Shown: positions 1 through 19,734, counted from the first letter of the stretch. The stretch: 64,000 nt of DNA from Caecitellus pseudoparvulus (GCA_965644315.1 CBFFRQ010000198.1:448-64447); one strand, 5' to 3'. Translations and numbers: made by a program. Notes: generated by a model not told the origin, from the letters alone.

Positions 1-1
1 G

Positions 2-1471
2 TTCAAAAATTCATATATTGGATTTAAAAAAGCAGTTGTTAAATTTCATCACGAAGAATTAAAAGAAAACGAATTTAATTTATTACCACCTCTTAAATTT
101 AAACCTGAACCATACGAACAAACATCAGATGATTTAAAAGAGAAAGTTGATTATTTATTAAAAAATTATTTCTTACGTGTCTTATCAAATGGAAACGAGG
201 AGAATTATAATTATTTAATTAAATGGATAGCTAATATGGTTCAAGGTAATAAAAATACGTCTATGATAGTTTTAAAAGGTCCTGAAGGTTGCGGTAAATC
301 TACATTAATTAGATTTATTGAAGATATGCTAGGGCTTAAGAATGTTATTAATTCATCATCTCAACCACTAATTGAAAAATTTAATATGGAACTAATGGCT
401 AAAGTTTGCGTATACTTTGAAGAACTCACAGGAGGAACAACAAGAGGACAAAAAGCAGCAGCAGCAGCAAGATTAAGAGATTATATCACGAATCCATATT
501 TAAACTATGAAGAGAAAAATAAAAACCCATTAGAAAACATTAAGAATGTTTCAAATTTTATTTCTCTATCAAATGAATATTACGCAATCAAAGACGACCA
601 AGGCAGACGATATTTTATTTTAGATATTGACTCAAGCTTATTAGGCAATAATGAATACTGGGATAATATTCATAATAATTATGTTCATAATGAAAAAATT
701 TCAAAAGCATTATTTAATTTTTTTAATAGTGTTGATATTTCAGATTTTCAACCACTTAAAATGCCTATAACTGATTCAAAAATTAAAGCTCATTTAAAAT
801 CTTTTGACCCTTATATATCATTCATAAGAGAAAAATATTTATTCAAAAATAAAGGAATAGATAAAATTAAATGTAGAGATTTATTTTTAAAATATGCCAC
901 CTATTATGAAAAGGTATATAAAGAAACTATAAACACTAAATCACGTAAAACATCAGTTTTTTTCTATGATAGATTAGAACATTGGGGAATAAAAAAATAT
1001 AATAAAAAATTAGACGGTCGTAATGTTTATAAAATTTCATTTGAGGAATTAAAGAAAATATCAGAAAACTATAAATGGAATTTCAAATCAGAATATGAAG
1101 ACGAAGAAGAAGATGAAGAAGAGGACGACGAAGAAGAAATAGATTTTCAAGAAGAAGAAACAGAAAATAACCAAAAACCAGATTTTAAATCTCAAGCGTT
1201 AAAATATAAAAAAATATGTATAGAACAAGCACAAGAACTAAAAAAATTAAAGGAAGAATTAAGAGCGTTAAAATTAAATATTATTAAAAAAGAAGAGGAT
1301 AAATACGAGGATGACAGCGAAGATGAAGACAGCGACGATGAAGAAGAGATAATAACTTTATCAGATAAACACCAGAAATTAAATAAAAGTTTAAGTAGTA
1401 TGACAGCAGATAAAATCTCTAAGAAATCTGAGAAACCAGAATCAGACGATTTATTTAAAATTTCAATATAA
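2..1471 (+). CDS. SF3/D5-like (primase-)helicase, 5'-truncated by window edge
   Basis: Frame is open from position 2 (FKNSYIG...YLIKWIANMVQ). Walker A GPEGCGKS, Walker B VYFEE, motif C ISLSN, DQGRRY arginine finger; acidic/coiled C-terminus. Confidence 0.88.
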   Translation, partial: FKNSYIGFKKAVVKFHHEELKENEFNLLPPLKFKPEPYEQTSDDLKEKVDYLLKNYFLRVLSNGNEENYNYLIKWIANMVQGNKNTSMIVLKGPEGCGKSTLIRFIEDMLGLKNVINSSSQPLIEKFNMELMAKVCVYFEELTGGTTRGQKAAAAARLRDYITNPYLNYEEKNKNPLENIKNVSNFISLSNEYYAIKDDQGRRYFILDIDSSLLGNNEYWDNIHNNYVHNEKISKALFNFFNSVDISDFQPLKMPITDSKIKAHLKSFDPYISFIREKYLFKNKGIDKIKCRDLFLKYATYYEKVYKETINTKSRKTSVFFYDRLEHWGIKKYNKKLDGRNVYKISFEELKKISENYKWNFKSEYEDEEEDEEEDDEEEIDFQEEETENNQKPDFKSQALKYKKICIEQAQELKKLKEELRALKLNIIKKEEDKYEDDSEDEDSDDEEEIITLSDKHQKLNKSLSSMTADKISKKSEKPESDDLFKISI

Positions 1472-1512
1472 GATTTTTAATATTTAAGAAAATAATTTTC
1501 TATACTCACTTA

Positions 1513-1761
1513 ATGAATATAGAAAATTCTTTAAAATCAGAATCAGGAGAAAAGAAAATTACACCATCCAAAGAACCAGAAAAAGTCAAAGAATATAATA
1601 AGAAATATTATGAAAAAAACAAAGACCGAATTTTAAAACAAATGAACCGGGTTATAAGGTGTGATATTTGCGAGAAAGATGTTAAATTTTATAATTACCC
1701 TAAACACTGCCGAGGATTAAAGCATAAACACTTAAAGATAATGAAAGCTTTTGAAAATTAA
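1513..1761 (+). CDS. Small zinc-finger protein
   Basis: CDIC...KHCRGLKH (C2H2-like) preceded by YNKKYYEKNK, a pattern common in virophages and giant viruses; TCTA motif upstream. Confidence 0.7.
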   Translation: MNIENSLKSESGEKKITPSKEPEKVKEYNKKYYEKNKDRILKQMNRVIRCDICEKDVKFYNYPKHCRGLKHKHLKIMKAFEN

Positions 1762-1803
1762 AAAAATATCTAAATAAAATATGTTTAAAGAAAAAATATT
1801 TTA

Positions 1804-1821
1804 TCTAGTATAATATATATA
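1804..1821 (+). promoter_or_regulatory. TCTA late-promoter-like motif upstream of polymerase
   Basis: TCTAGTATAATATATATA then ATG; near-identical leader at 15364. Confidence 0.7.
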
Positions 1822-3777
1822 ATGGCTCAACAACAAAAACCCACATTCACACAAAGTGAAAATATAGCAGCTAAGACATTTAAAGCATTCAACCAGAAAA
1901 CAAAGAAATATAAAGATGGAGATTTAAAAATATCTTTATTTGGAGTTTCTGATAATGACGAAAGCGATTATTTAAATTTTGATGATACAATCGATAACCC
2001 TGAAGATTTAAAATATTATTCTCAGGCAGTAAGAGAGCAATTAAAAGGGACAACAATAAAAACCACTCAAAATTATTTAAATGTATTATCTAAACTAGCA
2101 CAATATAAAAATTTAGATTATAATATAAGCGTTTTATTTTCTATCGGATGGCGTAATATTTCCAATGGTTGGAAGAATCCAGGACAAAGAATCAAAATAA
2201 AAGATTTTTTCAACCAATACAACGCACCAAATATTAAATATGTTTATGGTGTATGTATTACAACAAAACCACATATAGAACCAGAAGAAGCAGAAGCAGG
2301 GGCAAACAGTGAATATAACGATTGTTTATATTTATCTATCAGACGAGTAATAGGGCAAGACAGGATGAAACCTTTTACAACTGCAGGACGTTTAAAGAAT
2401 TTTTTAAATTTAGATAGAAAAGATAAAGTGCCATTAAAGGACATTTCAAAAATAGAAGATAAATTAAATATTAATATTAATGTTTATGGTTTTGAGAATC
2501 CTATTTTATCAACCAAATCTAACCCACAAACCGTTAATTTACAATACAAAGACGGACATTTAAAAAATAAATATAATAAAAGAAAAGGATTATCAGGAAT
2601 CAAAAAACATAAATCAGATTTAAAAATTATCATATATCAGGAAAATTTAGATTTCATTATTTATTATGATGGAATTACAGAAGAAAAGACCGATAAGATA
2701 ACTTTTTATAAAGACATCTATAAAAAACATTTTCATTTTTACCAATCCAACACAAAGAATGATATTAAATCAGAGTATGAAAAATATAAGAATGATATTA
2801 ACGAAATAAAAAAAGATGTTGATATATTAAAATTCAAATCAATCTCAGATTTTATTAAAAATGAATGTTATTATATTTCTCAAAAGTTAAACATTGAACC
2901 TTTAGAAAATCCATTAGAAATCCATTTTTTAAATAAATGTTTCAGTGGTGGTTTAATCCATTGTAAGAAAGGAAAATATAAAAATGTTAGATGTTATGAT
3001 ATTAACAGTCAATATCCCTATATTCTACAACATCAACATTTTTTAATGCCAACTAAAACAGGTAAATTTGAGAAATTAACAGAAACTCCAAAATTTTATA
3101 GATTTGGAATTTATAGAGCAAGAATAACAGGAAAAATAGACGATGCCTTATTTAATGTGAAACAATCTAATTTTTACACTAGCTATGAATTAACCAGAGC
3201 AAAAGAACTAAATTATAATATTGAATTAATCCAAGATGGAAGATATAATTTTTTATTCTATGATTCTAAAAGCCGTGTTAATGGTTCAATGGTGTTTAAA
3301 GATTATATTAAAAAGATGATAACATTAAAACAAACCTTTAAAAATAATCAAATCCCTAAGATGTTATTAAATCGTTTATGGGGTTTGTTATGTTCTAAGA
3401 ATTTTAAAATAACATCATTAAAAACATATAATCAAAGTATAAACAATATTAATTTTATCCATCCTTCTAATGATAATAAAGAATATGTAGTAAATTACAG
3501 CCCAGATAATCCATTTAATACCGATTTAAGCCGCTTAAGTTGCTTTCTCACAGCTAAAGGGCGTGTTTTAATATCTTCAATAATTGAAAAATACGTAAAA
3601 GACACAAGTAAAATATATAGAATTCATACAGACGGATTTATAACCGATAAAAACATTATCATTAATAAAATTAAAGGATTAGGGAAAGACGAATTAAGTA
3701 ATAATGAACTAGGAGGATTAAAAATAGAATATGAAAAAGATAAAATCAAAATAGTTAATGTAAATAAAATAATCTAA
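1822..3777 (+). CDS. Divergent protein-primed family B DNA polymerase (putative TP-vOTU-Pol, no recognisable exonuclease)
   Basis: FSGG pre-motif, motif A YDINSQYP, motif B KMLLNRLWG, motif C variant YRIHTDG, terminal LGGLKIE; N-terminal NDCL...DGH protease-like dyad. Confidence 0.8.
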   Translation: MAQQQKPTFTQSENIAAKTFKAFNQKTKKYKDGDLKISLFGVSDNDESDYLNFDDTIDNPEDLKYYSQAVREQLKGTTIKTTQNYLNVLSKLAQYKNLDYNISVLFSIGWRNISNGWKNPGQRIKIKDFFNQYNAPNIKYVYGVCITTKPHIEPEEAEAGANSEYNDCLYLSIRRVIGQDRMKPFTTAGRLKNFLNLDRKDKVPLKDISKIEDKLNININVYGFENPILSTKSNPQTVNLQYKDGHLKNKYNKRKGLSGIKKHKSDLKIIIYQENLDFIIYYDGITEEKTDKITFYKDIYKKHFHFYQSNTKNDIKSEYEKYKNDINEIKKDVDILKFKSISDFIKNECYYISQKLNIEPLENPLEIHFLNKCFSGGLIHCKKGKYKNVRCYDINSQYPYILQHQHFLMPTKTGKFEKLTETPKFYRFGIYRARITGKIDDALFNVKQSNFYTSYELTRAKELNYNIELIQDGRYNFLFYDSKSRVNGSMVFKDYIKKMITLKQTFKNNQIPKMLLNRLWGLLCSKNFKITSLKTYNQSINNINFIHPSNDNKEYVVNYSPDNPFNTDLSRLSCFLTAKGRVLISSIIEKYVKDTSKIYRIHTDGFITDKNIIINKIKGLGKDELSNNELGGLKIEYEKDKIKIVNVNKII

Positions 3778-3782
3778 AAATA

Positions 3783-3814
3783 TTATAAAGAATCTAATAA
3801 AAGATTTTTTATAA
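3783..3814 (+). terminator. 3' hairpin after polymerase gene
   Basis: TTATAAAGAATCT / AGATTTTTTATAA, 13-bp stem with one G-U pair. Confidence 0.55.
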
Positions 3815-5828
3815 TGTTATTTAATATGAACTTGAATAAATTGAAAAAACAGGATTTAAAAGAGTTTTTCAAATATCAATATGGAAAATATCCACCCTCA
3901 AATTTTAAAAAGAAAGATATTATAACAGTTCTAAGCCACGACATACAAACAGGGGCAGGAATAAAGGATTTTTTCAGAAGTAAAGCAAATTCAACATTTT
4001 CATTTTTAAAGAAAGGTTATAATAAGGTAAAAGATACATTTAAACCAGTTCAAAAAATAGAAGATACAATAACAAAGCCTTTTGATTATAGAACACGTCT
4101 AACGAATGAAAGCAGAAAAACACTAGAAGAAGTAGGCGATAAAGTAATTAATAACATAACAATTATTAGAACACCAGTAAATAAAACGTTAGTTAGTATT
4201 TTAGATACGTTATCATTTGGATATTTTAAACAATTAATGGAAAATCACGGATTCGATAAATTTTTCCATTTAGCCTTAGTTTTATCAATAGATGGGCGAT
4301 ACGTAATTTTAGAGAAATTAGCAGAGGTTAATATATCATTCAATTATAAGAAATCATATACAGAGCTTAGCGAATCAACAACAGTTGAAAACTATCAAGG
4401 AGGTTTAACATTAAATCAAATGGTGAATAAAACCCGTGAATTTATGGGCGATAAATTATTTTTTGATTATGACGCCTTCACTAATAATTGTCAAAATTTT
4501 ATTATGTCAGTATTAACGGCAAATGGACTTGACAACCAAAGAAATAAAGAATTTGTTTTTCAGGATATTAAAGAGATTTATAATGAATTAGAAAAGAAAG
4601 CGTCTTATTTATCACCTTTCGCTAAAATGACAACACGTTTAGGGGCTTGGTGGAATAAACTCACAGGAGCCGGAAAAAATCAAGCTGATATATTAACAAA
4701 AAAGAAACCAATAAACTATGGAATAGAAACAAACGAAATTATTAAAATGTTATCATTCAATTATAAAAATGTTGAGGTTATGGGCTCATCAGCTATTAAG
4801 GCTACTTTATATCCTTCAGATTTTGATTTATACGAAGTTGTAAAGGTAAAGAACTTAGAGGATTTAGAAAATAAATTTCAAGATAAAATATTAAAAATAG
4901 TTCAATCTAAAAATATATATTTAGGAGATGTTAAAATTGGAGTATTTCCAGAATTTAAAATTTTAAACAGATGATATATATGTATAAAAACGGGCGATTA
5001 ATAGGATATCAACCAAAAACAAATTAAGAAAGATATTAAAAGATAAATTATATTTTTTACCAAAACAAGAAAAACAAGAATTATTAAAACTCATTAAAGC
5101 AAAACCAACACCAGACGAATTAGATATTATAAAAGATAAATTAAGATATCATATATTAAGATGGACTCCAGACAGAAATATTGAGACGGTTATAAAGAAT
5201 TATCAACAAATAAATATATTAGTTTATTAGATGCTTTTAAAAGTGATGGATTATTTAAAGTTAGACGTTGTAGGATTTACCAGAAATAAATTTATTGACT
5301 TTTCCATAATCTACGAATTACGAAACGAGAAAACAAACAAACGAATAAATAATTTTATGGTTAATGTGAAAGATAATTTAAACGACCAAATAAGAACATA
5401 TAAAATAAAGGGTCAATATTTCAAAGCTCTAAAGCGTGAATTCTCAAAATTAAAACATACTTTCACATATACAAAAAATAAAGAAACCAAAGAAAAAGCA
5501 TTAAGAAGATTAAAAGAACTAACGGCATTTTTTAACGGTCAAGCAGGTATTATATATAGTGTTATTAATGATATTGAGGCGTTATTAAATGTTATAAAAT
5601 TATCTGAATCTGAATATTCAAGCAATGAAAAAATAATTAATGTTATTCAAAGTTTTATATATAGATTATCCAATATTTATTCAGTTAATGAATATTTAAG
5701 AAATGAAAAGAATATTTTATTAAGTATAAAAGCAATATTGAAAAATCCTGAAAATATGGAGGAAAACTTGGAACAATTTACAAAATATTTTATTTAAGAT
5801 ATTAAATAAATTTTCTAAATCTATATAA
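3814..5828 (+). CDS. Permuted papain-like domain fused to a Pol-beta-superfamily nucleotidyltransferase (virophage V21-like); frameshifted after ~4970
   Basis: FFHLAL (His 4267) and YDAFTNNCQNF (Cys 4489); then VMGS...SDFDL NTase motif (4783-4827). Downstream frames give YHILRWTP and KLDVVGF...DFSIIY, joining ORFs 3814..4974 and 5231..5797. End position inferred. Confidence 0.65.
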
Positions 5829-6449
5829 TGTCAATGAATAATAACGAAGTCAGAGAATTATTATTAAAACTAGAACAAAATAGAACTTTAGAAAATCAAA
5901 CCGGTGCTGGTTGTTGTGATGAAAGAACGGTAGGCGGTCAAGATTTATTACGGAGATATTAAAAACAAAGAAAAAACATTTGATGATATTAATTATAAGC
6001 GTTTAGATGGATTGTTAGGAAGTAATAGAAGCCTTAGAAAAACCACCAAAGAAACGAGGAGGCAGAGTTCAAGGCGATTTCTTCAACATGGTGGAGCTAC
6101 TGGAGGTGCTAAACTAGGTGAAGAATACGCCCGAGAATTACAAAAACATTTTAAGCATTTAGAAGGTGGTGAGAGCTTCTGGGATGGTTTTAAAAGAGGT
6201 TTCAACTCCGTGATTGAAGCCCGTAACTAAAGTTGTTAAAAGCTGTTGCACCTGTATTACCTTATGGCAACGTAGTTAAAGTCTGGTCTAGAAGCTGTAG
6301 GATATGGGAAAGCACCAAAGAAAAAACGCCAACCATCAGAAAAACAAAAGAACACGGGGACAACTAATTAAAAGAATTGATGCACGAGCACGGGTTAAGC
6401 TTTAGGTGAAGCCTCTCGCTATATCAAACAGAATAATTTAATGGATTGA
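5828..6449 (+). CDS. Basic virophage core-like protein, frameshifted
   Basis: ATG at 5828 with upstream TCTA. Pieces read MSMNNNE..., LEGGESFWDGFKRG, and a C-terminal RGQLIK.LMHEHGLS.GEASRYIKQNNL resembling a C-terminal motif I recall from virophage proteins. Confidence 0.55.
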
Positions 6450-6509
6450 AATACTTAAGATAAATATCTAAATAATATAATATTAAAAATTATTATATAA
6501 TTTATTATA

Positions 6510-8375
6510 ATGACAGAAAATAAATTTAATATCATTCCATAGCGAACAGGCAGAACGTATGCGACGCCAAGTTATGGACGAAGTTAAAACAAACCCAAAA
6601 TTATATTAATTATACATTAAGGGGGCAATTTCAAAACCAACCCAAGGGCACATCCTACAGGCTACTTTTAATACATATGTCTCAACATTCTTTTAATACT
6701 GCTAATTTATCACAAATGAAACAAACTAAAAATTTAATTAGGAGGAGCTCAAACAAGTAGAAGGACACAATTTAATAATGAATCAGTTAAAAAATAGAGC
6801 TCTACAATTAGAGCAATTAAGTGCAGGATTACCAGCAACAACAAAGACCACAACAAGCAGCACAAGAAATACCAGATACCGTCTCTACTTCTTTAGAATT
6901 ATTCTTTAGTTCTTTAACAAGTTCTGATTTTTCATTATCTTATATTTCATCAATGAATAAAGAAGCAAAACAGGCATTAGGAAACTTGAAGCAATACGGG
7001 CTAGATTTAGATAAACAAACATTAGAAAGATACGCACAAATTACAGAAACACATTTAGATAATTATTTAACTAATATAGATGAATTGTATTTAGGGCGTG
7101 ATATATTCGGCTCATATCTTGAAAATAGAGACGGAAAACAAGAAAGGAAAAGAGGCGATTTATATTTGGATTATTTAGAGCGTATTGATTATTACGAGGT
7201 TATTTTTAAAATTTATTTAACATTACAAGCCCTTATTAATAGTTTTGGAACTTCACCAGATACCAGAAAACAGGCATTTAACGAACAATTTAAAAATATC
7301 ATTATGGCACCTAAAAATAAAATATTTAATCCAGAATTAAAAAGAATTGATGATATTTTAAAACGTGGTTATAAATCATTAAAAGACGTAATAAATAAAA
7401 GTGCATATGATGAAATTAAAGAATACTTTGAAACTGACAAGAAACAGAAAAAGAACCCAAGCTTAAAAGATAGAGGAGAAGAAAGGGGATTAAAGGATTA
7501 TGAAGATATGAGAGAAGAAGAAAGGGAAGCAGAAAGGGAAGAAAATAAAAGAAAAAGGGCTATTGAAAAATTACTAAGAGACTTTGATAAACAAAATGAA
7601 AAGCTAAGAAAACATTTTAATAAGTTTGAGAATAAAAACAAACCATTAAAAAGCAAATCATCAATTAAAACACGTGAAAAAAGACTAAAAGCACTTGAAG
7701 AAATAATAGCGAAACTTCAAAACCTAGGAGTAGAAGCACCACCAATAGCACAACCAGAAGGAACACCACCAAAAGCAAAACCAGCGGCACCAGTAGCACC
7801 AACAGGGGAAGCAAAAGAAGCACCAAAACAAGCGGAAGATGGAGGAATACCAGAATTTAAGCCACCACCAGCAGCAATAGAAGAAGACTCAGAAGACGAT
7901 TTACCAGAAGCCCCACAACCACCCAGAACAAAACAGGCACAAACACCAGCAACACCAGCCCCAGCCGTTCCACCTTCTCCAGCTTCTCCACTTGATGCGA
8001 CAATACAGCGACTATATGACGATTTACAAAATAAAGAAAAACGATTATTAGACCATATAGATAAATACACGGAAGATGACGGAGCCATAACAAATAAGAA
8101 AGCAAGAAACCATAGAAAAGATTTAAGAAAACAATACAACAAAGCAAAAGGCAGATTATGAAGCACAAATAAGAGGAAGAGCAAGGGAAACACCAACAAA
8201 GCCACCAAGCGGGGCAGCTGCACCATATGATGATACAGACGGAACAGGAGAAGAGGATTTAACAGGGCAAGGAATGAACCCCGCAAAATTCACAACCAAT
8301 TTTTTAAAAGGTTCCGGACCAATGTTTAAACAAATAGAACAAATTTTTAAAGGTAAAAGGCGTTTATGGAAATAA
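6510..8375 (+). CDS. Large coiled-coil / Pro-Ala-rich virophage protein, frameshifted at both ends
   Basis: Clean core ORF 6821..8161. Coding-like sequence extends upstream to ATG 6510 (GGAQ...EGHNLIMNQLKNRALQL) and downstream to TAA 8373-8375, followed by a long hairpin. Confidence 0.6.
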
Positions 8376-8465
8376 AAGATTTACAAAAACATTAAAAAAC
8401 TTATAATAAAATATCTAGAAATTACAATATGATATATAGTTTTTTTAAGTTTTTGTAAATCTTTT
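8374..8465 (+). terminator. Long 3' inverted repeat
   Basis: AAAAGATTTACAAAAAC / GTTTTTGTAAATCTTTT is a perfect 17-bp stem, extendable to ~30 bp with small indels; starts at the stop codon. Confidence 0.7.
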
Positions 8466-8481
8466 TTTCTAAATCTTAATA

Positions 8482-9277
8482 ATGCCTAGTTTTGAATTAC
8501 TTGATTATAAAAACTCTAAATTAAAAAAGGATTATACACCGGTTGCCATTGTTAAAGGTGATGAAAACCACAAAGACTTTAATAAATTCTTATGTTTAAC
8601 CGATAAAAACACGGGTCATAAAAGTATAAAACTACCTGATGATTTAATTTTTAATATTCTCCCATCAACAAAAAGGGGAAAACGTGATATTTTCTATATT
8701 GCTGGTGCTTCTGGTTCTGGTAAATCATATCAAGCAAAAATTATTTGTAATAATTATCATAGATTAAATCCGGATTTGCCTATATTTTTAATATCTAAAT
8801 TAGAAGAAGACGAAACGTTGGACGAATTGGACTATATCCACCGTGTAGATATTGAAGATTTTATAGAAGAATTTAATATTAATAATGAAGATTTAGCGGG
8901 ATTCTATATTTTTGATGATTTTGAAACATTAGAAAAACCTATTTTAGATAAAGTTATTAAAATCATTGATGATATATGTATTATGGGGCGACATAATAAT
9001 TTAACACTTAGCCTATATCAGCACACAATCTAACAAACTATAAAAAAACGACGGTTAATTCTTAAATGAATCCAGCACATATTGTTATTTTTCCTCAAAG
9101 TCTTCCTCACCTCATCAATTAGGCTATTTATTAAAGAAATTATGGAGGATGTGATAAAGACGAAATTAAGAAACTTACGCAAAGCTTAGGCAGGTGGACT
9201 GTGTGTCTTATACAAATTATCCGAATTATATATTATCTTCAAATTATGCTTATCTTTTACATCAGGACGAAGATTAA
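8482..9277 (+). CDS. A32/FtsK-HerA-like genome-packaging ATPase, frameshifted in 3' third
   Basis: Walker A GASGSGKS, Walker B FYIFDD, MGRH arginine motif; downstream frames give TNYKK.R and end YAYLLHQDED-stop at 9277. Confidence 0.9.
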
Positions 9278-9316
9278 AAAATAATATATGATATTATTAT
9301 TATATAATATATTATA

Positions 9317-9903
9317 ATGAAAAAATCTAAAAAATCTGACCCAGAACATAACGAAGAATTAAGACAAGAACTTAAACGATATTATTTATCAAATAGTGAT
9401 TTAGAATATTTATTTAATGATGATACAAATATTATAAGTTATGATAAACTATATAATTATAGACATATTGACGAAATCTTCGATAAAAAGGGGCGTTGTG
9501 TGTTATTATATCTGACGTCTGACCCTAATGTCGGTCATTGGGTAGGCACTTAATTAAAAAAGGAAACATTATAGAACATTTCGACCCTTACGGACACCCA
9601 CCAGACACAGCAACGGAAAATTTAGAGGCTTATGAAGAAGTAGAAAAACAAACAGGACAAGACGAACCCCGATTATTAAGAATGATAGACCAGGCGGGGT
9701 ATGGTTTAGAATATAATAAATACCCATATCAAAAGAAAGGAGAAGGTATAGGAACTTGTGGCAGACACACAGCGGCACGATTACTTTTATATAAATTATC
9801 TTTAGAAGATTATAAGAAATTAATGAAATCATTAAAAGATAAGAATTTAAAAGACTTTGACGACGTAGTCACCAAATTTACATATGATTTATTAAAAAAA
9901 TAA
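9317..9903 (+). CDS. Adenain-like (C5/Ulp1-fold) maturation cysteine protease, one frameshift near 9545
   Basis: GHW (His), EHFDPYG (Asp), YQ (oxyanion Gln) and TCGRH (Cys), split across ORFs 9317..9553 and 9538..9903. Confidence 0.9.
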
Positions 9904-9938
9904 TTTTATTAAAATATTTTATCTAATATATATTAATA

Positions 9939-11083
9939 ATGTTAAATTCTACAATGTATCAAGACGATAAAAATATTTATTATAATATTGATATTATCAA
10001 CGGAAGAAGCACAAGCCAAGGCAAGATTAATGACCCTATTGCCAGTTTTTCAGAAACACGAGACGTGCCTTTAATTAATGATGCTAGTAAATATAAAATG
10101 TCTATTATTCGTTTTACTATGAATGGTATAAATGATTTACCTTTATTTATTCCAGTAATTGAAGAAGGACAAACAACCCCTAATAAAACCGTTTATAAAA
10201 TCACAGTTCAACATAATCATATAGGCGGGCAACGTATACGAATTTACACAGCCCGTTATTTGGGAAAGCAACGATAGCAAGCTTAACTGCACCTTCAAAT
10301 TTTGAAACACAAGGACAGGACGCAACACAAGAATATTACTACTGCCACACATACGACCATTTTATTAATTTGGTTAATACTAGCTATTACATATTCTATA
10401 GCACAATTAAACGCATTAATTAAAGTAGATTTTCCAGCATTTACAGATTTAATACGCCCTTTTATAGTATATAACAACGCAAATAAAAAATTTGATATTT
10501 ACTATCCCGCAGATAATGACGCCGGTTTTTCGTTTTATTTTAATTCAAATTTATATAATCTTATTGTCTCATTATCCGCACGAATACAACGATTTAGACG
10601 AAGTTAAACAATATAGAATTATCCCCCGTAATTATCAGGGTTTAAACTAGTATAACGTTAAATAGTGTAGATTATATTAAAATAGAACAGGAGGCGGTAA
10701 GTCTTAGGCACATATTGGAGCCCTATAAGTTCTATTGTTTTTACTTCTTCATTACTTACCTATTATATCTGAGGGTGTTTCTCAACCTATCAAATTTGGT
10801 AATTCTAACAATGCTAATGCCGTTTCTTCGGTTTCTAATTTTGAACCTATTATAACTGATATCAGCCTTAACTTTAGATGATGCTTATAATTACAAGGAC
10901 TTTTTATCCTACATTCCAGGGGCTGAATATCGTTTCGTATCTCTTACAAATTCTAACCAACCTATAAGGAACGTGAATGTGAATATTTATTGGAAGTATC
11001 GGCTAACAGGTCAATTAGTGCCTTTGAAATTATCCAACTTATCCAATATCTCTATGAAGTTTTTATTCCAGCCTAAATATTAA
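9939..11083 (+). CDS. Virophage minor capsid (penton) protein, multiply frameshifted
   Basis: N-terminus IYYNIDIIN...FSETRDVPLI.D.S.Y..SIIRF..NG..DLPLFIP and C-terminus IYWKYRLTGQLVPL...SMKFLF match the virophage penton pattern; lies directly upstream of MCP. Confidence 0.85.
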
Positions 11084-11163
11084 AAAATATCTAGTCTAAG
11101 ATTTTTAAGAGTATACGTGATTTTTTAAAATAAAAATATAAGGGTTTATTTTTAAAAATATTT

Positions 11164-11178
11164 TCTAAAATATATTAT
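11164..11178 (+). promoter_or_regulatory. TCTA late-promoter-like motif upstream of MCP
   Basis: TCTA in AT context, 11 nt before ATG 11179. Confidence 0.7.
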
Positions 11179-13060
11179 ATGTCTCAATATAGAAAAAGTT
11201 AAAGTTAATGGACAGCCCGAATCGTCCAACCTCAAGCTCAAGATATGCCGTAAATGAAGGAGCAGTAAGTATCTACGTCAATACATCCAATTTCCAGGCT
11301 GCCACTGCTTCTAGTTCTTCACGTGCTTCTTGCAATATTACTGCACCTAATCAGCAATACGTTTATGGACCGTAATCTTGCCAGTAAGTGTTGATATTAT
11401 GCGGTAAAATTACTGCTACAATTACCACTAAAGATGGTAATCCCGCAGCCTTTCCAGTAGGATACCCAGGAAAACCCAGGTTTAACAGGACTGCCAGTTT
11501 TTACCCCCGGTGATTCTATCGCCCCCGCTGCTTATCCTTTCCAATCTTGTATGAGCACCACCACCGCAAACTATTAATAATTCCACAGTCTTCCGTGAAT
11601 TCTTCAAGATGTAATTTATGAAATTCTTAAAATGTCAGCTTCTAAAAGATAATCATAAAAGCAAGAACAACACCTTCAATGCTTGATAAATACGTCTCAT
11701 TATAATGACAGCACGCACACTTTCTAACAGTCAGTATTGAAAGGATATCAAGACAGCTTTAAATAATGATAATGTGCCAAATGGTGCTTTTCAAGGTTTT
11801 CAATGGGTTAAAGAAAATGGAGAACCTGCCGTAGCTGCTGATTATCAATGGCAAACACAAACAGGAACCGCCGTTTCTTGGAGTCAAACCGTATATTTTA
11901 AACTAACCGTCACGGAAAACTTAATTTTAAGTCCTTTCATTTTTAATGAATCTCAAGAAGATAACGTAGGCTTATACGGTTTAAATAACATTAAATTAAT
12001 GTTTAATGTTGGCGATGTTTCAAGAATGCTAAGATATACCACAAACCATAATTTATTAAATGATTGGAATTTCTCATATTCTCCCGTAAGCTTAAACGGT
12101 CAAGAACCTTTTAAAAATGCCGTTATTAATTGCACTTTTAGAACACCAAGTTTAAGTCTACCTTTACCAACTCGATCTATCGTGCCTTATATGGAATATC
12201 CCCGCTATATTACTACTACCGGGGCTAATATTGCTGATGGTTCAAGTGCTTCACTAACAAGCCAAACCATAACACTTTCTCAAATTCCTGATTTACTCTT
12301 AATTTATGCTAAACCTAATTTATCAGGTAATAACACATTAGGCGACCATTATTTACCCGTTAAAAAAATTTCTATGAATTTTATGAATGTAGCCGGTATT
12401 TTATCAAGTCATACCAAAGAGCAATTATTCCACATTTCACAAAATAACGGCTTAGATATGGACTGGAACGAATACTGCGGCGAAGCCTGGACCGACCAAA
12501 TCGCAACCGCAACTACTGGCGGTATTCCTGCTTCTAATGGTAAAGTTTCATTATGTGGTGGCTTCCTCGTTTTACGTCCTGGGGTTGACTTTGCTTTACC
12601 TGCTGGAGTTGCTAGTGGTTGTGGCGGAAATTTCAACCTTCAATATACCGTTGAAGTAGAAAATAAAAGCGGTCGTGCCGTTCAATCTCCTACATTATAC
12701 ACAATGGCTGTTAATAGTGGTTTCTTTGTTTCTGAAAACGGGCAATCAGCAATTACAACCGCTCCATTAAACGAACAAGACGTAATCCAAGCACCTATTG
12801 AAGGCGACACAATGTCATTAAAACGATATGTTGGCGGTAGTTTCTGGGATAAAGTAAACTCAGGATTAAAAAAAATAACAAATCATGAAGCTTATAAAAT
12901 GGCTTCTAAACTTGGAAAATCTGCTTTACGTGATGTAGGTATGGAAGGAAAAGTAGCAGCCGACGTTTTAGATAAATTGGGATTAGGTGTAAATACAGGA
13001 GGTGGAAAAACTACAGGTGGAAGAAGACGAAAAAATAACCTTCAAAATTTATTAAGTTAA
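11179..13060 (+). CDS. Virophage major capsid protein (double jelly-roll); 5' third frameshifted
   Basis: ATG 11179 with IEKVKV...RIVQ...YAVNEGA in shifting frames. Clean ORF 11774..13060 with TENLILSPF, SQTITLSQIPDLLLIY, YVGG-SFW and a basic Gly-rich tail. Confidence 0.93.
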
Positions 13061-13069
13061 ATAATTTAA

Positions 13070-13099
13070 TTTATTGTTTAAGAAATATTAAATAATAAA
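13070..13099 (+). terminator. 3' hairpin after MCP
   Basis: TTTATTGTTTAA / TTAAATAATAAA, 12-bp stem with one G-U pair. Confidence 0.55.
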
Positions 13100-13126
13100 A
13101 AAAATAATATATATTATATTAATAAC

Positions 13127-15028
13127 ATGTATAATAACGCAAAATATCAATATGAAATGAATAAATTAGAAGTGTATAGCGAACCTGAAACAAATGCAAA
13201 CGTTGCGAGATTAAAAGAAGCCACTAATTATTTTTCAACTGCGGGGACTGCTTACGGAACTCAAGACACTATAAACGCAAACACCAATTTTAAAGCTATG
13301 TTCTTTACACAACCTCTAAAAGATGTTTTAAAAGCTCCAGACGATAGGGGGTCATATTCACGATTAAGCTTAAATTATTATTGCGAAATTGAAACAACAC
13401 TAAACGAACAATTAAATTTAAATGTCAGGTTAGATTATTACGATAAAGACGAAAATTATATTTCCTCTAGCAATGAAGCCGATATTTTAAACACAGACCA
13501 TTTAATAGATATTCAAATAGTAGGGGACGCCTTACAATTTCCAGCGAATACAAAATATATTTATTTGGCAGCTAAAAATAACGCAAATTTTAACACTACA
13601 TTTAAATTTAAACATGCAACGGCTAAAACTTCAACCGCTCAAGAAGTATTATTAGCAGACCCGCCCACTAATTCAAATCGTTTATTTGTGATACTCGGTA
13701 ACTCGACGCAAGGCACTCCTGCTCCAATACCCCCATCTAATCCATCATATGAAACCGTCACCCTTGATAAAGCCTCTAACCCTTCTTTAATCTTTGATAA
13801 TGGTTCATCAACAATGGATTTAACATATAATAGCGATGATGAATTAAATATTAACGGAAATTTAGGATTTGGAGGGACTGAAGTTTTACTAAATCAAGAC
13901 GATAATAATAAAATTTTAACTTTATCAGCTAAAAACGCCTCAACCGCTCAATTTAGAATTGGAAACGACCCAAATAAACAATTAACTTATTTTTATGAAA
14001 CAGGGGCAATTTATCTGAGTCCTAGTTGTCGTATTTTTCAAACTGATACCGCTTTTAATGATGATTGTTTAACCAATAAAAAATATGTTGATGATGAAAT
14101 AACTAATAATTGTGTCCAACTTACAGGAAATCAAAGCATAGCAGGAAATAAGACATTTTCAGGAATTACAAGCATAGAAGCTTTGCTAGATATGAATAAT
14201 AATAAAATTGAAAATGTAGCGACCCCAACTATAGGAACTGATGGAGCTAATAAAGCTTATGTTGATAGTGTGGCAGGTGGTAGCAGTTTTAATAATAATA
14301 TTAATTTGAATGGTAATAATATTGAAGATGTAGGAGAGATTCAAGCCGATAAATTAACGTTAATTCGTCCGGATGGTTCTTTGGTTTCATATTGGATAGA
14401 ACAATTAAGCAACGAAACAAGATACGTTAATATGAGTGGTGGTAGCAGTTCAGAACACGCCTTTTATTGTAATAATTCAGGTGGAGCGGTTCAGCGTTTT
14501 TCAGTTTCTAACACAGAACTTAAAACAAATGTTAAATTAGATATGGGCAATAGAAATATTGAATGGTTAAAAGATGCTACAACACAATATCACGCCCCAA
14601 ATTACGGGCAATTATTAGAAAGAACGGCAAAATTTCAAAGTTATAAAATAGCTCTTAATGATGTTTTCACCGCTAACACTTGGAAAACATTTGTTATGGA
14701 TGATGTTATCCCCGTTGAATCATACCAAACAGGAACATATATTTTAAGTGCTACTATAAATTTAGTAATTGATGGACCAGGACAAACAACAGCAGTTGTA
14801 TTTGGTAGAATGACCGTTCCTAATTCTGCTTCAGGTGAGGATAACACAATCGGGCGAATATTTATGGAAGCTGAAGCAGCTAAAAATTACGGACAAATTA
14901 CATTATCTAGAGTTATGACGGTATCTTCGGCGGGTAATTTTCCTATGTGGCATGTGGCAGTCAAAAGTGATATAAATGAAAATATAGACGTTGAAATAAC
15001 ATATAAAATGGATAGAATATCAAATTAA
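13127..15028 (+). CDS. Putative trimeric fibre/spike protein
   Basis: Repeated neck-like motifs DDCLTNKKYVDD, LDMNNNKIENVATPT..TDGANKAYVD and LDMGNRNIEWLKDA...APNYGQL; beta-rich; immediately after MCP. Confidence 0.65.
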   Translation: MYNNAKYQYEMNKLEVYSEPETNANVARLKEATNYFSTAGTAYGTQDTINANTNFKAMFFTQPLKDVLKAPDDRGSYSRLSLNYYCEIETTLNEQLNLNVRLDYYDKDENYISSSNEADILNTDHLIDIQIVGDALQFPANTKYIYLAAKNNANFNTTFKFKHATAKTSTAQEVLLADPPTNSNRLFVILGNSTQGTPAPIPPSNPSYETVTLDKASNPSLIFDNGSSTMDLTYNSDDELNINGNLGFGGTEVLLNQDDNNKILTLSAKNASTAQFRIGNDPNKQLTYFYETGAIYLSPSCRIFQTDTAFNDDCLTNKKYVDDEITNNCVQLTGNQSIAGNKTFSGITSIEALLDMNNNKIENVATPTIGTDGANKAYVDSVAGGSSFNNNINLNGNNIEDVGEIQADKLTLIRPDGSLVSYWIEQLSNETRYVNMSGGSSSEHAFYCNNSGGAVQRFSVSNTELKTNVKLDMGNRNIEWLKDATTQYHAPNYGQLLERTAKFQSYKIALNDVFTANTWKTFVMDDVIPVESYQTGTYILSATINLVIDGPGQTTAVVFGRMTVPNSASGEDNTIGRIFMEAEAAKNYGQITLSRVMTVSSAGNFPMWHVAVKSDINENIDVEITYKMDRISN

Positions 15029-15046
15029 ATTATATATGTTTTTATA

Positions 15047-15319
15047 ATGATTATTGATATTAAAAAAAGTAATAGAAAAAATAAACGTTTCGTCGCTATA
15101 TTTCATGATGGAACTAAAGCACATTTTGGATATAATGGAGGAGAAACATATATAGACCATAAAGACAAAAGAAAACGTGAAAATTACAGAAAAAGACACA
15201 AAAAAGATTTATTAACGTATGACCCTAAAAGACCAGGTTATTTATCATTCTTTTTATTATGGGGTGATGATGATAATTTAAAAGATGCCGTTAAAACATA
15301 TAATGAAATGTTTTTTTAA
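15047..15319 (+). CDS. Small basic viral protein (DUF5754-like)
   Basis: KSNRKNKRF...HFG...YIDHKD..KRENY.KRH...PGYLS..LLWG pattern, known from giant viruses and virophages. Confidence 0.7.
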   Translation: MIIDIKKSNRKNKRFVAIFHDGTKAHFGYNGGETYIDHKDKRKRENYRKRHKKDLLTYDPKRPGYLSFFLLWGDDDNLKDAVKTYNEMFF

Positions 15320-15363
15320 AACAAAAATAATTTATTAAAGACGGCGGATAAAAAATAAAAATC

Positions 15364-15378
15364 TCTAGTATAATATAT
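15364..15378 (+). promoter_or_regulatory. TCTA late-promoter-like motif
   Basis: TCTAGTATAATATAT directly before ATG 15379. Confidence 0.65.
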
Positions 15379-15942
15379 ATGAATTTAGAAAGCGGATTAA
15401 TGCTAGGGGGTGCTTTAGTATCCTTAGGAGTGTAAAGCTCTTATAATTGCTGGAAAAATGGAAGAGCTAAAAAATTTAAGGCGGTCAAATTTGGGGCTGT
15501 TGTTATGAGTTGTAAAACTGGAAAAAGTAGAATGTGTGAAAAATTAAAAGGCAATAATAAAGTGCTTTTAGTCGACGTCGGTGAAAGTGTAGAACGTGAA
15601 AACGGGGTTAATTCAAATGTTAATTATTTAGTAAAAGCTAAAGAATACGTTGATAAATTAAGAAAAGATTTAAAAGACCATTCTTTATTATTGGTTGTTT
15701 CTTCAATTGCTGAGGCTAAATTTTTGGGTTGTGATGATAAAGCCATCGTATGTTTAACCCCCTCTAATGATTTATTTAGAAAAATCACAGAAAATGTCCC
15801 AGCTGCTGAATTAAAAAAAGTTGAAGCCGACAGAATGGATTTAATCAGCAGTTGCGGTCAGGATTTATTAAATATCTTTGATAGTTTTGATAATTTATAT
15901 AATGTTATACGAACCACATTCAAATTATCTAACAAGTTCTAA
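15379..15942 (+). CDS. Small P-loop-like protein with hydrophobic N-terminus; in-frame TAA at 15433
   Basis: ATG 15379 has a TCTAGTATAATATATA leader and is in frame with ORF 15505..15942; VVMSCKTGKS and LLVD are Walker A/B-like. Confidence 0.5.
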
Positions 15943-15947
15943 AAAAA

Positions 15948-15966
15948 AATAATAAGGTTTATTATT
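15948..15966 (+). terminator. Hairpin in convergent intergenic region
   Basis: AATAATAA-GGT-TTATTATT; short and AT-only, so weak evidence by itself. Confidence 0.35.
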
Positions 15967-16069
15967 AAGACGCTCTAAAGGTGTTAAATAAAAAAGTAAA
16001 AAACAAAATAAGAGACAAAATATAAAACCTGATATTAAATATATTTTCATAATGTCTATAAAAATATAT

Positions 16070-16531
16070 TTATATTTTAATCTTTTCAATTGGTTTTAGT
16101 TCTGTTATGGGTATTTCTAAATGAATTTTATTTATACCTCTATCATGCCTACAAATGTTTTTTTTATTGAATGTATTAAATATTTTTGATTTATATTTAA
16201 TATAATATAAACCATCGCTGAAATTAAATAAGAAATAAAAACGTTTATTAGGATGTTCTAATTTAGCAGCTTTTATATGTCTTATCTTTTCAATGTTTAT
16301 TATTGTTGTTGGGTATTTGTTATATGTATTATTTCGGCTCTTCAACTCTATATTATATTTTCCGTCTTTTGTTATAAAGTCAAAATGATTAAAAAAATCA
16401 GTTGTTTTGTAAAATTTGTTTTTGGTTATTTTATTAAGTCTTTTTAATACTTGATGTTCTTTATTAAATCCTTCATCTCTTGATTTTCTTAAACTATTTA
16501 TATATTTTTGAGTCGGTTTTGTAAAATCCAT
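16070..16531 (-). CDS. PD-(D/E)XK-family nuclease
   Basis: E...HFDF...NIELKSR catalytic pattern; FNFSDGLYY; TCTA upstream. Confidence 0.7.
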   Translation of the reverse strand: MDFTKPTQKYINSLRKSRDEGFNKEHQVLKRLNKITKNKFYKTTDFFNHFDFITKDGKYNIELKSRNNTYNKYPTTIINIEKIRHIKAAKLEHPNKRFYFLFNFSDGLYYIKYKSKIFNTFNKKNICRHDRGINKIHLEIPITELKPIEKIKI

Positions 16532-16563
16532 ATTATCATGACTTAGAAAATATATTTAATGAT

Positions 16564-17622
16564 TTATTTTTTCTTAGAGTTTTTTTTATATTTTTTCACT
16601 AAATCAGGAACCTGAGAATTTATGCGTTTGGCTTCTTCGTATGTTTGCTCTTTGTATCCCTTCCATTTTATACGATAATATTTTTTATTCTTAATCTTTT
16701 TCTCTCCTGTTATCTTCTCTACTTCATAGCGTTTATTATCTTCTATTTCTTCTGGTTTATCTTGTTCTTTTGGATTATATAAAAGTTGATTTCGTGTGTA
16801 TCCTGTATTATCTATACCTTCAATAGTATATATTGGCGGTTGTCCTGGTGTAATTAAAACACCTTCTATTTTTCTTAGTTTGTTTTCATATCTAAAATCA
16901 CCCGTTCTAAATAATGTTCCGTGTAATCTTTTACCGTCTATATTTTGTGGATAGTCTAAAATAATTTTTACTAAATCTCCACGTTTCAATATGTCTTTTG
17001 GTATATATGGCATTTTGAAAAATTCTTTAATTCCTATTTTTGGTCGTTTTAATATTATTTCATTATATAATTTCATGATTTGCGGGATAGTTTCTACCCA
17101 TTCTTTATTTTCTTGTTTATGGATGAGTTCAAAATTTTTTTGTTTCAGTGCTATAATACGCCCTAACGTTTTATTTAATGCTTCAACAACTGCTGTTTGC
17201 CTATGTCTTGCAACTCTTGAATTTTTCAACGTCGCATTATCTGAACTCTCAAAATATTTTTTAACATCCCCTTTACATTCTTTGCCATCATCTGTTTTAA
17301 ATATCACGGATGGAGGGTTTAAATATTTTCGTTTCCATATTCTCTTTAACGCTTTCAATACGGTTTTGCTTTCTTTATTTTTTAATGGCTCAGCATCTGC
17401 GGCTTTTGTTGCTACATCTACCACAACTAATAAATATTTATAGCCTTTATCCTCTGGTAAAAATAATAAATCACCTTGTTGAATACTATCTTTAATTAAT
17501 GCTTTATGTTTTGGTATCTCTTCGCCTTTATCTTTCTTTGGAGGTTTGGTTAATGTTGTTAATTCTGATTTTTTAGAATCTTTAAAAATTTTCAATTCTT
17601 CCAAAATCTTATCTGATATCAT
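16564..17622 (-). CDS. Retroviral-type (rve, DDE) integrase with C-terminal chromodomain
   Basis: QGDLL, YLLVVVD, KTDDGKE and VVEALNKTL (D-D-E triad); C-terminal YEVEKI...YYRIKWKGY...TYE chromodomain. ORF is intact. Confidence 0.93.
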   Translation of the reverse strand: MISDKILEELKIFKDSKKSELTTLTKPPKKDKGEEIPKHKALIKDSIQQGDLLFLPEDKGYKYLLVVVDVATKAADAEPLKNKESKTVLKALKRIWKRKYLNPPSVIFKTDDGKECKGDVKKYFESSDNATLKNSRVARHRQTAVVEALNKTLGRIIALKQKNFELIHKQENKEWVETIPQIMKLYNEIILKRPKIGIKEFFKMPYIPKDILKRGDLVKIILDYPQNIDGKRLHGTLFRTGDFRYENKLRKIEGVLITPGQPPIYTIEGIDNTGYTRNQLLYNPKEQDKPEEIEDNKRYEVEKITGEKKIKNKKYYRIKWKGYKEQTYEEAKRINSQVPDLVKKYKKNSKKK

Positions 17623-17636
17623 TAATAATATATAGA
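17623..17636 (-). promoter_or_regulatory. TCTA late-promoter-like motif upstream of integrase
   Basis: TAGA at 17633-17636 on + strand (TCTA on -), 10 nt before the integrase ATG. Confidence 0.65.
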
Positions 17637-17650
17637 TTAATATATTATTA
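17623..17650 (-). terminator. 3' hairpin after 17656..18207 gene
   Basis: TAATAATATA / TATATTATTA, 10-bp perfect stem. Confidence 0.5.
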
Positions 17651-17655
17651 GTAAT

Positions 17656-18207
17656 TTAAAATTTATGGTCTGGGTATTCCTCTTTTAAGTATTTAATTAA
17701 ATCTTCTTTTGTTTCATATCTGGTATAAAATCCATTGTTCTTAATTCTGGTTATCATTTTAATAAAAAACTCATCTTTTAATAATTCTTTTAATTCATAT
17801 GATACCGTTTTTATATTTTTTGGTAGCTTGGGTAATATCTGAGATTTTAAAATATAATGTTGTTGAACGAAAGCCTCCGGGCAGTTTGTCCCTAGTGTAT
17901 CAATAATAAATTGTCTCTTGGATAAATCATCAATATATAAATTTATAACTTCTAATAAATCTATTAATTGTTCGAATGTTTTAATTTTATTTTTAATGTC
18001 TTCTGTTTCTGCTTCAACTTCTAATTTAACTTTTTCTAAATTCTCTAATTTGGTTTCTTTTCTGATTTTTATAGATGGTTCATTAAATATTGAGTAATAA
18101 AAGAAATACGAATAATCCTCAATTTTACAAAATTTATTAATTAATGAGTGATAAGAATTCAACTCCCTCTTATGAATTGTTAATAATGTCTTTAGACTTT
18201 TTGTCAT
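17656..18207 (-). CDS. Hypothetical viral protein
   Basis: 183-aa ORF in AT-rich DNA with TCTA 10 nt upstream and a hairpin just past the stop; no motif recognised. Confidence 0.65.
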   Translation of the reverse strand: MTKSLKTLLTIHKRELNSYHSLINKFCKIEDYSYFFYYSIFNEPSIKIRKETKLENLEKVKLEVEAETEDIKNKIKTFEQLIDLLEVINLYIDDLSKRQFIIDTLGTNCPEAFVQQHYILKSQILPKLPKNIKTVSYELKELLKDEFFIKMITRIKNNGFYTRYETKEDLIKYLKEEYPDHKF

Positions 18208-18362
18208 TATATATACTTAGAATATTTATTTTTTAAATTATTTTTTAGATTTAAATAAATTAGTTTTAAGAAAAAAATAATCTAGAGCTTTTTAATATAT
18301 CAAGATGTAATTTATATAATGTATTAAATCAACGTTGTATCATAAGCCATAATATCCATTCA

Positions 18363-18399
18363 TTTTATAAATATTAATTATCAAATAATATTTATAAAA
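18363..18399 (-). terminator. 3' hairpin after 18392..18928 gene
   Basis: TTTTATAAATATTA / TAATATTTATAAAA, 14-bp perfect stem overlapping the stop. Confidence 0.65.
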
Positions 18400-18928
18400 A
18401 TTCATCTTTTGAGACTGTTTCAAATAATCCTAATCTTTCGGCATTGTCTGGATGATATACAACCGGTATTAATTCATCTAAAACATTTTTATATTTCCTT
18501 TTGTGTTTTTCTTTATGTCTTAGAATTTTTATATATTCTTTTAATGTATTTGAAGACCATTTAAAATGTGGAACTACTGATATTAAATCAGAAAAGAAAC
18601 AATCTTTCTTTTCTATTCCTTCTGCACTCCATTCCTTATCGGGATATTTAAAAATCCAATCAATACTAAAATATTTAAATTTATGAAATATCTTAAAATT
18701 TAAATAACCATCATTATACTTATCTATTAGTTCTATTGTTAATCCTGATTTTTTTATATTCTTAATATCTTCAATTGTTATTTTTGAATTATCAGCCCCT
18801 TTTAATCTTGTAATTTCAATAAATTTCTCTCTTACACATTCTATATTGCCACAACAACTTAATAAAATATCATCTTCTATGTTATTACAGGTTATAATAT
18901 CATAATATAAATTAAAATCAATATTCAT
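18392..18928 (-). CDS. Hypothetical protein with giant-virus-like motifs
   Basis: KYPDKEW and C-terminal DELIPVVYHPD motifs; perfect 14-bp hairpin over the stop codon. Confidence 0.6.
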   Translation of the reverse strand: MNIDFNLYYDIITCNNIEDDILLSCCGNIECVREKFIEITRLKGADNSKITIEDIKNIKKSGLTIELIDKYNDGYLNFKIFHKFKYFSIDWIFKYPDKEWSAEGIEKKDCFFSDLISVVPHFKWSSNTLKEYIKILRHKEKHKRKYKNVLDELIPVVYHPDNAERLGLFETVSKDEFL

Positions 18929-18999
18929 TATAGACCTATATAAAATAAAAATCTTTAAACATTTATATAATATCTTGAAATATATTGTTGATTACTTCT

Positions 19000-19650: not shown

Positions 19651-19734
19651 TTTATTAGAATAGTATATACTGTTCTTTTTAAGTCGTTTTTATGTGTTTT
19701 TTATTATATATTCGCACACGCCCCACGCTATGTC

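Follow-up and report, generated by a model that had tools for sequence, protein, structure and literature searches.

A phased TCTA signal before the genes of an integrated Caecitellus virophage resembles the late promoter of CroV-type giant viruses

The window analyzed here, a 64,000-nucleotide stretch of Caecitellus pseudoparvulus DNA (GCA_965644315.1 CBFFRQ010000198.1:448-64447), begins with an element that, judged by its genes, is an integrated virophage (Maveriviricetes/Virophaviricetes) and neither mavirus nor EMALE04 (EMALE, endogenous mavirus-like element). It encodes a virophage-type major capsid protein (PF22031, E 6e-45; PF21915, E 7e-16; Sputnik V20, 3j26_A, E 4e-23) together with a penton, a packaging ATPase and a cysteine protease, all three frameshifted in the assembly; the ATPase shares 52% and the protease 57–60% identity with those of related virophage contigs. 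A protein resembling protein-primed DNA polymerase B (PolB) matched ESM Atlas clusters in which 14–45% of members carry PF03175 (score 0.98), and is 32% identical to its counterpart in a relative, L028. The gene behind it (3814-5797) is frameshifted in the window and forms a single 661-amino-acid open reading frame (ORF) in L028; an ESM Atlas search with this ORF gave no usable match. The genes of the element are preceded, at an enriched position, by a two-part signal with a fixed 8-nt spacer, which is conserved in the nearest relatives and stands in the same arrangement before giant-virus genes; these points, like the virophage identity, we regard as established.

A first-pass annotation of the window had listed 11 TCTA sites 10–17 nt before start codons. 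All 11 lie at the listed positions and on the listed strands, with gaps of 10–17 nt between motif end and ATG; in site order, the first base of TCTA lies 14, 18, 21, 14, 14, 17, 15, 15, 16, 14, and 14 nt from the A of the ATG. Statistics were based on the 17 gene starts within the window (that of the first gene lies outside it), which were chosen with the motif already known and are mostly the first ATG of their ORF. Starts 5828, 11179, and 15379 belong to frameshifted genes, for which the reading is backed by homologues, and start 6510 is inferred. TCTA occurs 14–18 nt before 10 of the 17 starts, a count reached in none of 5000 dinucleotide shuffles of the 40-nt upstream regions (mean 1.06, maximum 6), and 14–21 nt before 11 of them (mean 1.64, maximum 7; 0/5000), so that the positional enrichment over shuffled background is borne out. 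Separate shuffles of intergenic DNA only likewise never reached the observed count (0/2000). TCTA precedes just 14 of the 576 other ATGs of the element at 14–18 nt (Fisher p 2e-11), and the top C/G-containing 4-mer in any 5-nt window reached six starts at best in 200 shuffles. Over the whole window TCTA is not enriched (285 occurrences vs. 291 expected); the signal is therefore positional. The element thus has the AT-flanked TCTA at a fixed short distance before the ATG that marks late promoters of the type found in Cafeteria roenbergensis virus (CroV).

Alignment on TCTA revealed a second part of the signal: position +12 is T in all 11 sites and +13 is A in 10, the TCTA at 3793 being the sole out-of-phase site, and an A-rich run lies about 9–10 nt upstream. 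The full signal, AT-rich sequence plus T[C/A]TA-N8-TA, a pattern defined post hoc after the data had been seen, precedes 16 of the 17 starts (shuffle mean 1.84, maximum 6 of 2000). When a six-base AT run was required in front, spacers of 5 to 12 nt were found at 8, 9, 0, 14, 1, 5, 2, and 1 of the 17 starts, respectively. In the five in-phase genes with distances of 15–18 nt, the TA follows the phase of TCTA and not that of the ATG (5/5). TCTA had also been described as absent before the protease, fibre, and DUF5754-like genes; it is indeed absent there, but the starts without TCTA at this spacing number six rather than three (6510, 9317, 13127, 15047, 18928, 19650), and all six have an in-phase TATA-N8-TA at 14–19 nt. 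The TATA form thus precedes six of the seven starts that lack TCTA-N8-TA (shuffle mean 0.87, maximum 4). Among the relatives compared, orthologues exchange TCTA, TATA, and TCTN in one phase: TCTA stands before the protease gene in L019 and L114 and before the fibre and 6510 genes in L028; for PolB, L028 has TATA. Such free exchange in one phase points to a single type of promoter whose core is degenerate, and on this ground the idea that the TCTA-less genes have a promoter class of their own was rejected. The early motif AAAATTGA was found within 100 nt of none of the starts and has three copies elsewhere in the element.

Coordinates are collected in Table 1. The phased two-part architecture, shorter by one base than the late consensus published for Mimivirus, is possibly new; no description of an 8-nt spacer was found in the accessible text of publications on TCTA, and their motif logos (Hackl Fig. 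3-S5, ChlorV Fig. S6, Halocafeteria Fig. S7A, Table S6) may already show a phased TA. An extra AT-flanked TCTA-N8-TA lies at 18281-18294 (+), in the 18208-18391 spacer, where the next ATG (18305) runs into a stop at once.

Table 1. Promoter-like sites and genes of the integrated element (window coordinates).
Feature	Position	Strand	Associated gene or remark
Integrated virophage	1..20260	.	left end outside window; GC step; contigs of runs X3, X7, X13
Primase-helicase (superfamily 3, SF3)	1..1471	+	DUF5906 E 3e-16; TIGR01613 E 1e-14; 5' end and promoter outside window
TCTA-N8-TA	1499..1512	+	small ORF 1513-1761
TCTA-N8-TA	1804..1817	+	protein-primed PolB-like gene 1822-3777
TCTA, 21 nt upstream; only start without phased TA	3793..3796	+	gene 3814-5797
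TCTA-N8-TA	5814..5827	+	frameshifted gene from 5828
TATA-N8-TA	6494..6509	+	gene 6510-8375
TCTA-N8-TA	8468..8481	+	packaging ATPase 8482-~9284, frameshifted
TATA-N8-TA	9301..9316	+	cysteine protease 9317-9903, frameshifted
TCTA-N8-TA	9922..9935	+	penton 9939-11083, frameshifted; PF21507; Sputnik 3j26_N
TCTA-N8-TA	11164..11177	+	major capsid protein 11179-13060, 5' part frameshifted
TATA-N8-TA	13108..13121	+	fibre-like gene 13127-15028
TATA-N8-TA	15031..15046	+	DUF5754 gene 15047-15319
TCTA-N8-TA	15364..15377	+	gene 15379-15942
TCTA-N8-TA	16534..16547	-	PDDEXK nuclease 16070-16531
TCTA-N8-TA	17623..17636	-	rve integrase-chromodomain gene 16564-17622; PF00665, PF00385
TCTA-N8-TA	18208..18221	-	ORFan 17656-18207
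TATA-N8-TA (plus TCTA at 6 nt)	18929..18942	-	ORFan 18392-18928
TATA-N8-TA (plus TCTA at 9 nt)	19656..19669	-	GIY-YIG-like gene 19000-19650; TIGR01453 E 2e-4
Gene-free terminal region, ends in five C	19670..20260	.	

The capsid places the element away from mavirus. A phmmer search with it returned Sputnik V20 only and no mavirus chain, and a profile of the clade's capsids scored Sputnik at 212 bits vs. 44 bits for structure 6g45, which we take to be the mavirus capsid. Neither search thus gave the mavirus-like capsid expected of Maviroviridae/EMALE type 4; the rve integrase (16564-17622) also lies away from the helicase (1-1471), near which that group carries it, and AT-flanked TCTA before most genes (11 of 17 starts) is the trait of the group that the element does have. 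For phylogenetic placement, 160 related loci, collapsed to 88 at a capsid identity of 90%, were analyzed with FastTree (no outgroup, midpoint rooting, long-branch warning). The element and its eight closest relatives, which stand at 38–49% capsid identity and carry no family label, form a nine-row clade with SH-like support of 100; L028, L032, and L110 have the same gene order as the element from PolB through the 15379 gene. All eight related contigs labelled in Table S1 of Roux et al. belong to Burtonviroviridae, and none of them falls inside the nine-row clade, which, in this midpoint-rooted tree with its long-branch warning, stands beside the labelled Burtonviroviridae and not among them. 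On the tree, L052 received the label Burtonviroviridae as a presumed near-copy of L164. The accessible part of the same table (Roux et al., 2023; PMC9952930) assigns a 19.7-kb element from a protist genome (Caecitellus) to Burtonviroviridae.

TCTA-N8-TA occurs in seven of the eight closest relatives (18 of 35 ORFs pooled; spacers of 7 and 9 nt gave 2 and 3). Among the other 80 virophage rows, L095 (12/17) and L104 carry it and most do not, and the label requires four changes on the capsid tree. Plain TCTA is about twofold enriched in these 80 rows (94 of 782 ORFs vs. ∼45 expected). The AT-rich virophage L049 has the signal before none of its 25 ORFs, so AT content by itself does not yield it. 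With the core relaxed to T[AC]TA, 16 of the 17 ORFs of L095, a distant 17-kb virophage outside the element's clade, are preceded by the phased signal.

Beyond virophages, 67 distinct loci were fetched, mainly with DUF5754 and GIY-YIG queries (mostly small DNA viruses). The signal was strong in several without a virophage capsid match, namely L207 (6/7), L233 (10/14), L210 (6/9), L231 (7/11), and L196 (6/11), two of which encode A32 ATPases; L244 is likewise a small DNA virus without a virophage-type capsid match that has TCTA-N8-TA promoters. The sequences hint that all six may be further parasites of giant viruses. Searches for a helper through the element's own genes gave one weak locus for ORF 18392-18928, none for the integrase, and mostly small DNA viruses for the DUF5754 and GIY-YIG genes.

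Giant viruses were approached by scanning viral contigs for the motif plus ATG, with a TGTA version as control. A gene began at the ATG in 39 of the 62 TCTA matches vs. 13 of the 51 TGTA matches (31/48 vs. 13/42 after deduplication). The 36 loci with a match at a gene start according to the ORF caller (seeded loci) had TCTA 12–24 nt before 74 of their 300 other genes (shuffle mean 15, maximum 27; TGTA 11), and the 26 remaining loci showed no enrichment (18/256 vs. 14). In the seeded loci the TCTA distance peaks at 14 nt, T occupies +12 in 82% and A occupies +13 in 79% of 68 aligned sites, and a spacer of 8 nt is the mode (52 sites, vs. 10 and 8 for spacers of 7 and 9 nt). Many of these loci are giant-virus DNA, with capsid, VLTF3, A32, Erv1, and P8 genes of nucleocytoplasmic large DNA viruses (40 and 20 proteins scanned), and TCTA-N8-TA stands before giant-virus A32 ATPase, Erv1, and P8 minor capsid genes. 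Named genomes of giant viruses assembled from metagenomes (GVMAGs) numbered 16, of which six appear in the table of Aylward et al., five as Mimiviridae IM_16 (g212, g215, g220, g222, g224) and one as IM_01; the accessible part of that work gives CroV as g225, reports that g220 contains mPacV.611, and places several PacV viruses with CroV. The likeness to the AT-flanked late motif of CroV and mavirus, suggested by the first-pass annotation, therefore holds, in that the signal is positional and promoter-like and recurs as TCTA-N8-TA before giant-virus genes. Its further claim, that the motif points to the helper, is not supported: the signal occurs in at least five genus-level groups of Mimiviridae, in an IM_01 bin, and in unrelated small DNA viruses, and ChlorV has TCTA in common with CroV (PMC13196603, accessible part). 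No single helper can be named from TCTA alone; what the motif points to is the CroV-type Mimiviridae as a group.

We consider it likely that T[C/A]TA-N8-TA serves as a promoter of late genes, recognized by the transcription machinery that a CroV-type giant virus (Mimiviridae) brings along; the element would then stay quiet until infection. Following the mavirus experiments, a Mimiviridae-type virus would enter a cell in which the element is silent, its late factor would recognize the upstream core and trigger expression, and excision or replication via PolB, helicase, and integrase would then precede packaging in the virus factory. The downstream TA may mark the initiation region, as in the bipartite late promoters of poxviruses and African swine fever virus (PMC5294985, accessible part). 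Mavirus genes are silent before CroV infection and their induction requires CroV DNA replication (10.1101/068312); reactivation with CroV was limited to the TCTA-bearing EMALE type (PMC10945749). The mechanism put forward in the annotation has thus been published for mavirus and EMALE04, and by analogy it is plausible here.

Several observations weigh against so specific a reading. Raw scan matches were similar in number for TCTA and the TGTA control (62 vs. 51), and only gene-start use separates them; moreover, the giant-virus loci were picked via one gene with an 8-nt spacer, which may favor such genomes. Ten of the 16 GVMAGs are unclassified and one is IM_01, and the grouping of g212 to g224 with CroV would rest partly on genus numbering. 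Unrelated small DNA viruses (L207, L233, L231) also bear the signal. The published Megamimivirinae late consensus (at most one mismatch, within 50 nt) fits 4 of the 17 starts, with a shuffle mean of 4.0, so that the signal is not the Mimivirus motif as published. A shared late promoter accounts for only part of gene expression in Sputnik (PMC11998528, accessible part), and FNIP-repeat proteins have been named as an alternative basis of specificity (Koslova et al.).

Some of the same data would also fit a late promoter of giant-virus type that says little about the helper clade, being either an old and widespread signal of Imitervirales or a relic in a copy that cannot be activated. Several virophage branches bear the signal, with L104 and L095 outside the clade and four changes on the tree; it is present in unrelated A32-bearing small viruses and one IM_01 bin, TCTA is enriched even across the other 80 virophage rows, and seven genes in the window are frameshifted. 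We nonetheless think this unlikely, given that IM_16 accounts for five of the six classifiable giant-virus genomes, that the phased form is missing from most other virophage rows, that the frameshifts look like long-read errors, and that close variants are present in four runs belonging to four studies.

A host RNA polymerase II core promoter, composed of a TATA-like box and an initiator and active without any helper, would explain the resemblance of the TATA variant to a TATA box, but the box lies only 14–19 nt from the ATG, nearer than the polymerase II TATA-to-start distance of ∼25–30 nt, and TCTA is the commoner form. In addition, four starts assigned to putative host genes of the window have no AT-flanked TCTA, and giant viruses that have a late transcription factor of their own show the same arrangement in front of genes. 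Even though the integrated element brings PolB, helicase, and integrase genes of its own, and autonomous replication is known for at least one polinton-like virus (10.64898/2026.10.13.758929, accessible part), helper-free transcription from such a promoter appears quite improbable. Hardly credible is the idea that no promoter is involved and that the pattern is a by-product of short AT-rich spacers and palindromic terminators, or a signal of translation context: the spacers are 82–97% AT, stems of at least 12 bp occur in 7 of 17, and where the distance is 14 the TA amounts to no more than the two bases preceding the ATG, yet the intergenic-only dinucleotide shuffles, the phasing of TA to TCTA at distances of 15–18 nt, and the AT-rich L049 that lacks the pattern all speak against it, and on statistical grounds it is already largely refuted.

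Going beyond the preferred reading of a CroV-type late promoter, we advance a more speculative idea, which we hold to be doubtful at present. Late promoters of Mimiviridae might be built on a common two-part plan, with an AT run and a T[C/A]T core followed by a TA initiator downstream, in which the spacer acts as a compatibility code, 8 nt being CroV-type and one more nucleotide Mimivirus-type; unrelated parasites, namely mavirus, small DNA viruses with A32 genes, and the present marine clade, which combines a Sputnik-type capsid with PolB and integrase, would then have converged on the CroV-type spacing. If this were true, the subfamily of giant viruses that wakes a given endogenous element could be predicted from the length of the spacer.

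The element is set off from its surroundings by GC content, which is about 25–30% for the element, ranges over 20–38% in the first 20.26 kb, and is ∼62% in the remainder of the window. Contigs from runs X3, X7, and X13 run left of 20261 into other sequence and represent alleles without this element end; together with the GC step they place the right junction at 20260/20261. The region 19670..20260 is likely the right terminal inverted repeat, with its partner outside the window. Contigs of four runs from four studies, of which run X1 may be the source sample, span nearly all of the element and its flank, mostly at 90–99% identity. At several frameshift sites the extra single bases are missing from short-read contigs, which fits long-read insertion errors as the origin of the frameshifts in the seven genes. 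EMALE "pseudogenes" were similarly traced to long-read errors by Hackl et al. (PMC8547959, accessible part).

The copies differ in some details. The GIY-YIG-like gene (18960-19677) is skipped in X1 and X7 contigs and is thus present in some element copies only, and an X5 contig that keeps the PolB promoter continues after 1819 with a different coding start, which suggests that this promoter is followed by a variant PolB there. At 20599, ∼340 nt from the element end, X3 and X7 contigs pass into a 6-nt tandem repeat of a kind typical of telomeres, and the element may have inserted at a subtelomeric or repeat-associated site. A loose end of run X14 at 6585 resembles a template-switch library adapter, so that this run may be an amplified single-cell or cDNA library; it makes up a small share and was not used as evidence. 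Run X15, labelled metatranscriptomic and probably DNA, gave only short, mostly low-complexity matches that count neither for nor against expression. The flank is GC-rich eukaryote DNA with an importin-like gene (one metagenomic match at 98%) and an open frame of 9835 codons at 27241-56748 (-) with several SPRY domains, by which the host is apparently intron-poor. An Rfam search returned no matches. Between genes (1469-19002), stems of 12–16 bp with at most one mismatch occur in 7 of 17 spacers (mean 0.6, maximum 3 in intergenic shuffles) and frequently overlap the following promoter; one pair of 31-nt arms lies at 8371-8401/8438-8468. By analogy these stems may be Mimivirus-type 3' hairpin signals as in Sputnik (PMC6723459, accessible part).

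Of the eight EMALE types, seven have no known helper giant virus. TCTA in mavirus, EMALE04, CroV, and ChlorV has been published (PMC13196603), as has promoter-based matching of virophages to giant viruses (PMC11502894); for related literature, see PMC6048507, PMC8575486, and 10.1101/2022.07.28.501842. To this the element adds a non-mavirus, integrase-bearing clade of marine virophages that is apparently tuned to CroV-type late transcription, and it refines the tetramer into a phased motif of two parts, which covers 16 of 17 genes and is better suited to promoter matching.

The closest known system is formed by CroV, mavirus, and the type-4 EMALEs that Cafeteria burkhardae carries (PMC8547959, PMC10945749, 10.1101/068312; accessible parts). 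Both comprise an integrated, low-GC virophage of ∼20 kb in a GC-rich host, with a primase-helicase, a protein-primed PolB, an rve integrase, the gene order ATPase-protease-penton-capsid, and AT-flanked TCTA before most genes, replication genes included. In contrast, the capsid and penton of the present element are Sputnik-like and not mavirus-like, and its helicase and PolB genes lie at one end and its integrase at the other, whereas low-GC EMALEs have the integrase near the helicase 5' end (PMC8547959, accessible part). Its host is apparently not an annotated C. burkhardae strain, judged by the importin-like gene, the one gene compared, which has no near-identical named protein. The accessible part of a report on endogenous virophages of Halocafeteria seosinensis (bioRxiv 10.64898/2026.07.28.741278) describes CroV-late-like promoters in a subclade of non-mavirus virophages, in a host of 47% GC compared with ∼62% here. 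Within Burtonviroviridae (Priklausovirales; PMC9952930, accessible part), most labelled members lack the phased motif, and the element's relatives form a branch of their own. The late motif of CroV and ChlorV (PMC5294985, PMC13196603; accessible parts), compared by its text description as a tetramer only, is likewise an AT-flanked TCTA shortly before the ATG. Finally, the Megamimivirinae late promoter, common to Sputnik and Zamilon (PMC11464507, accessible part), resembles the element's signal in its AT run, T[AC]T core, spacer, and downstream TA, with a C/A degeneracy that matches the TCTA and TATA variants found here; it differs in that the element's TA is one base closer, and once shortened by one base its consensus fits 9 of the 17 starts (equalled in 3 of 500 shuffles).

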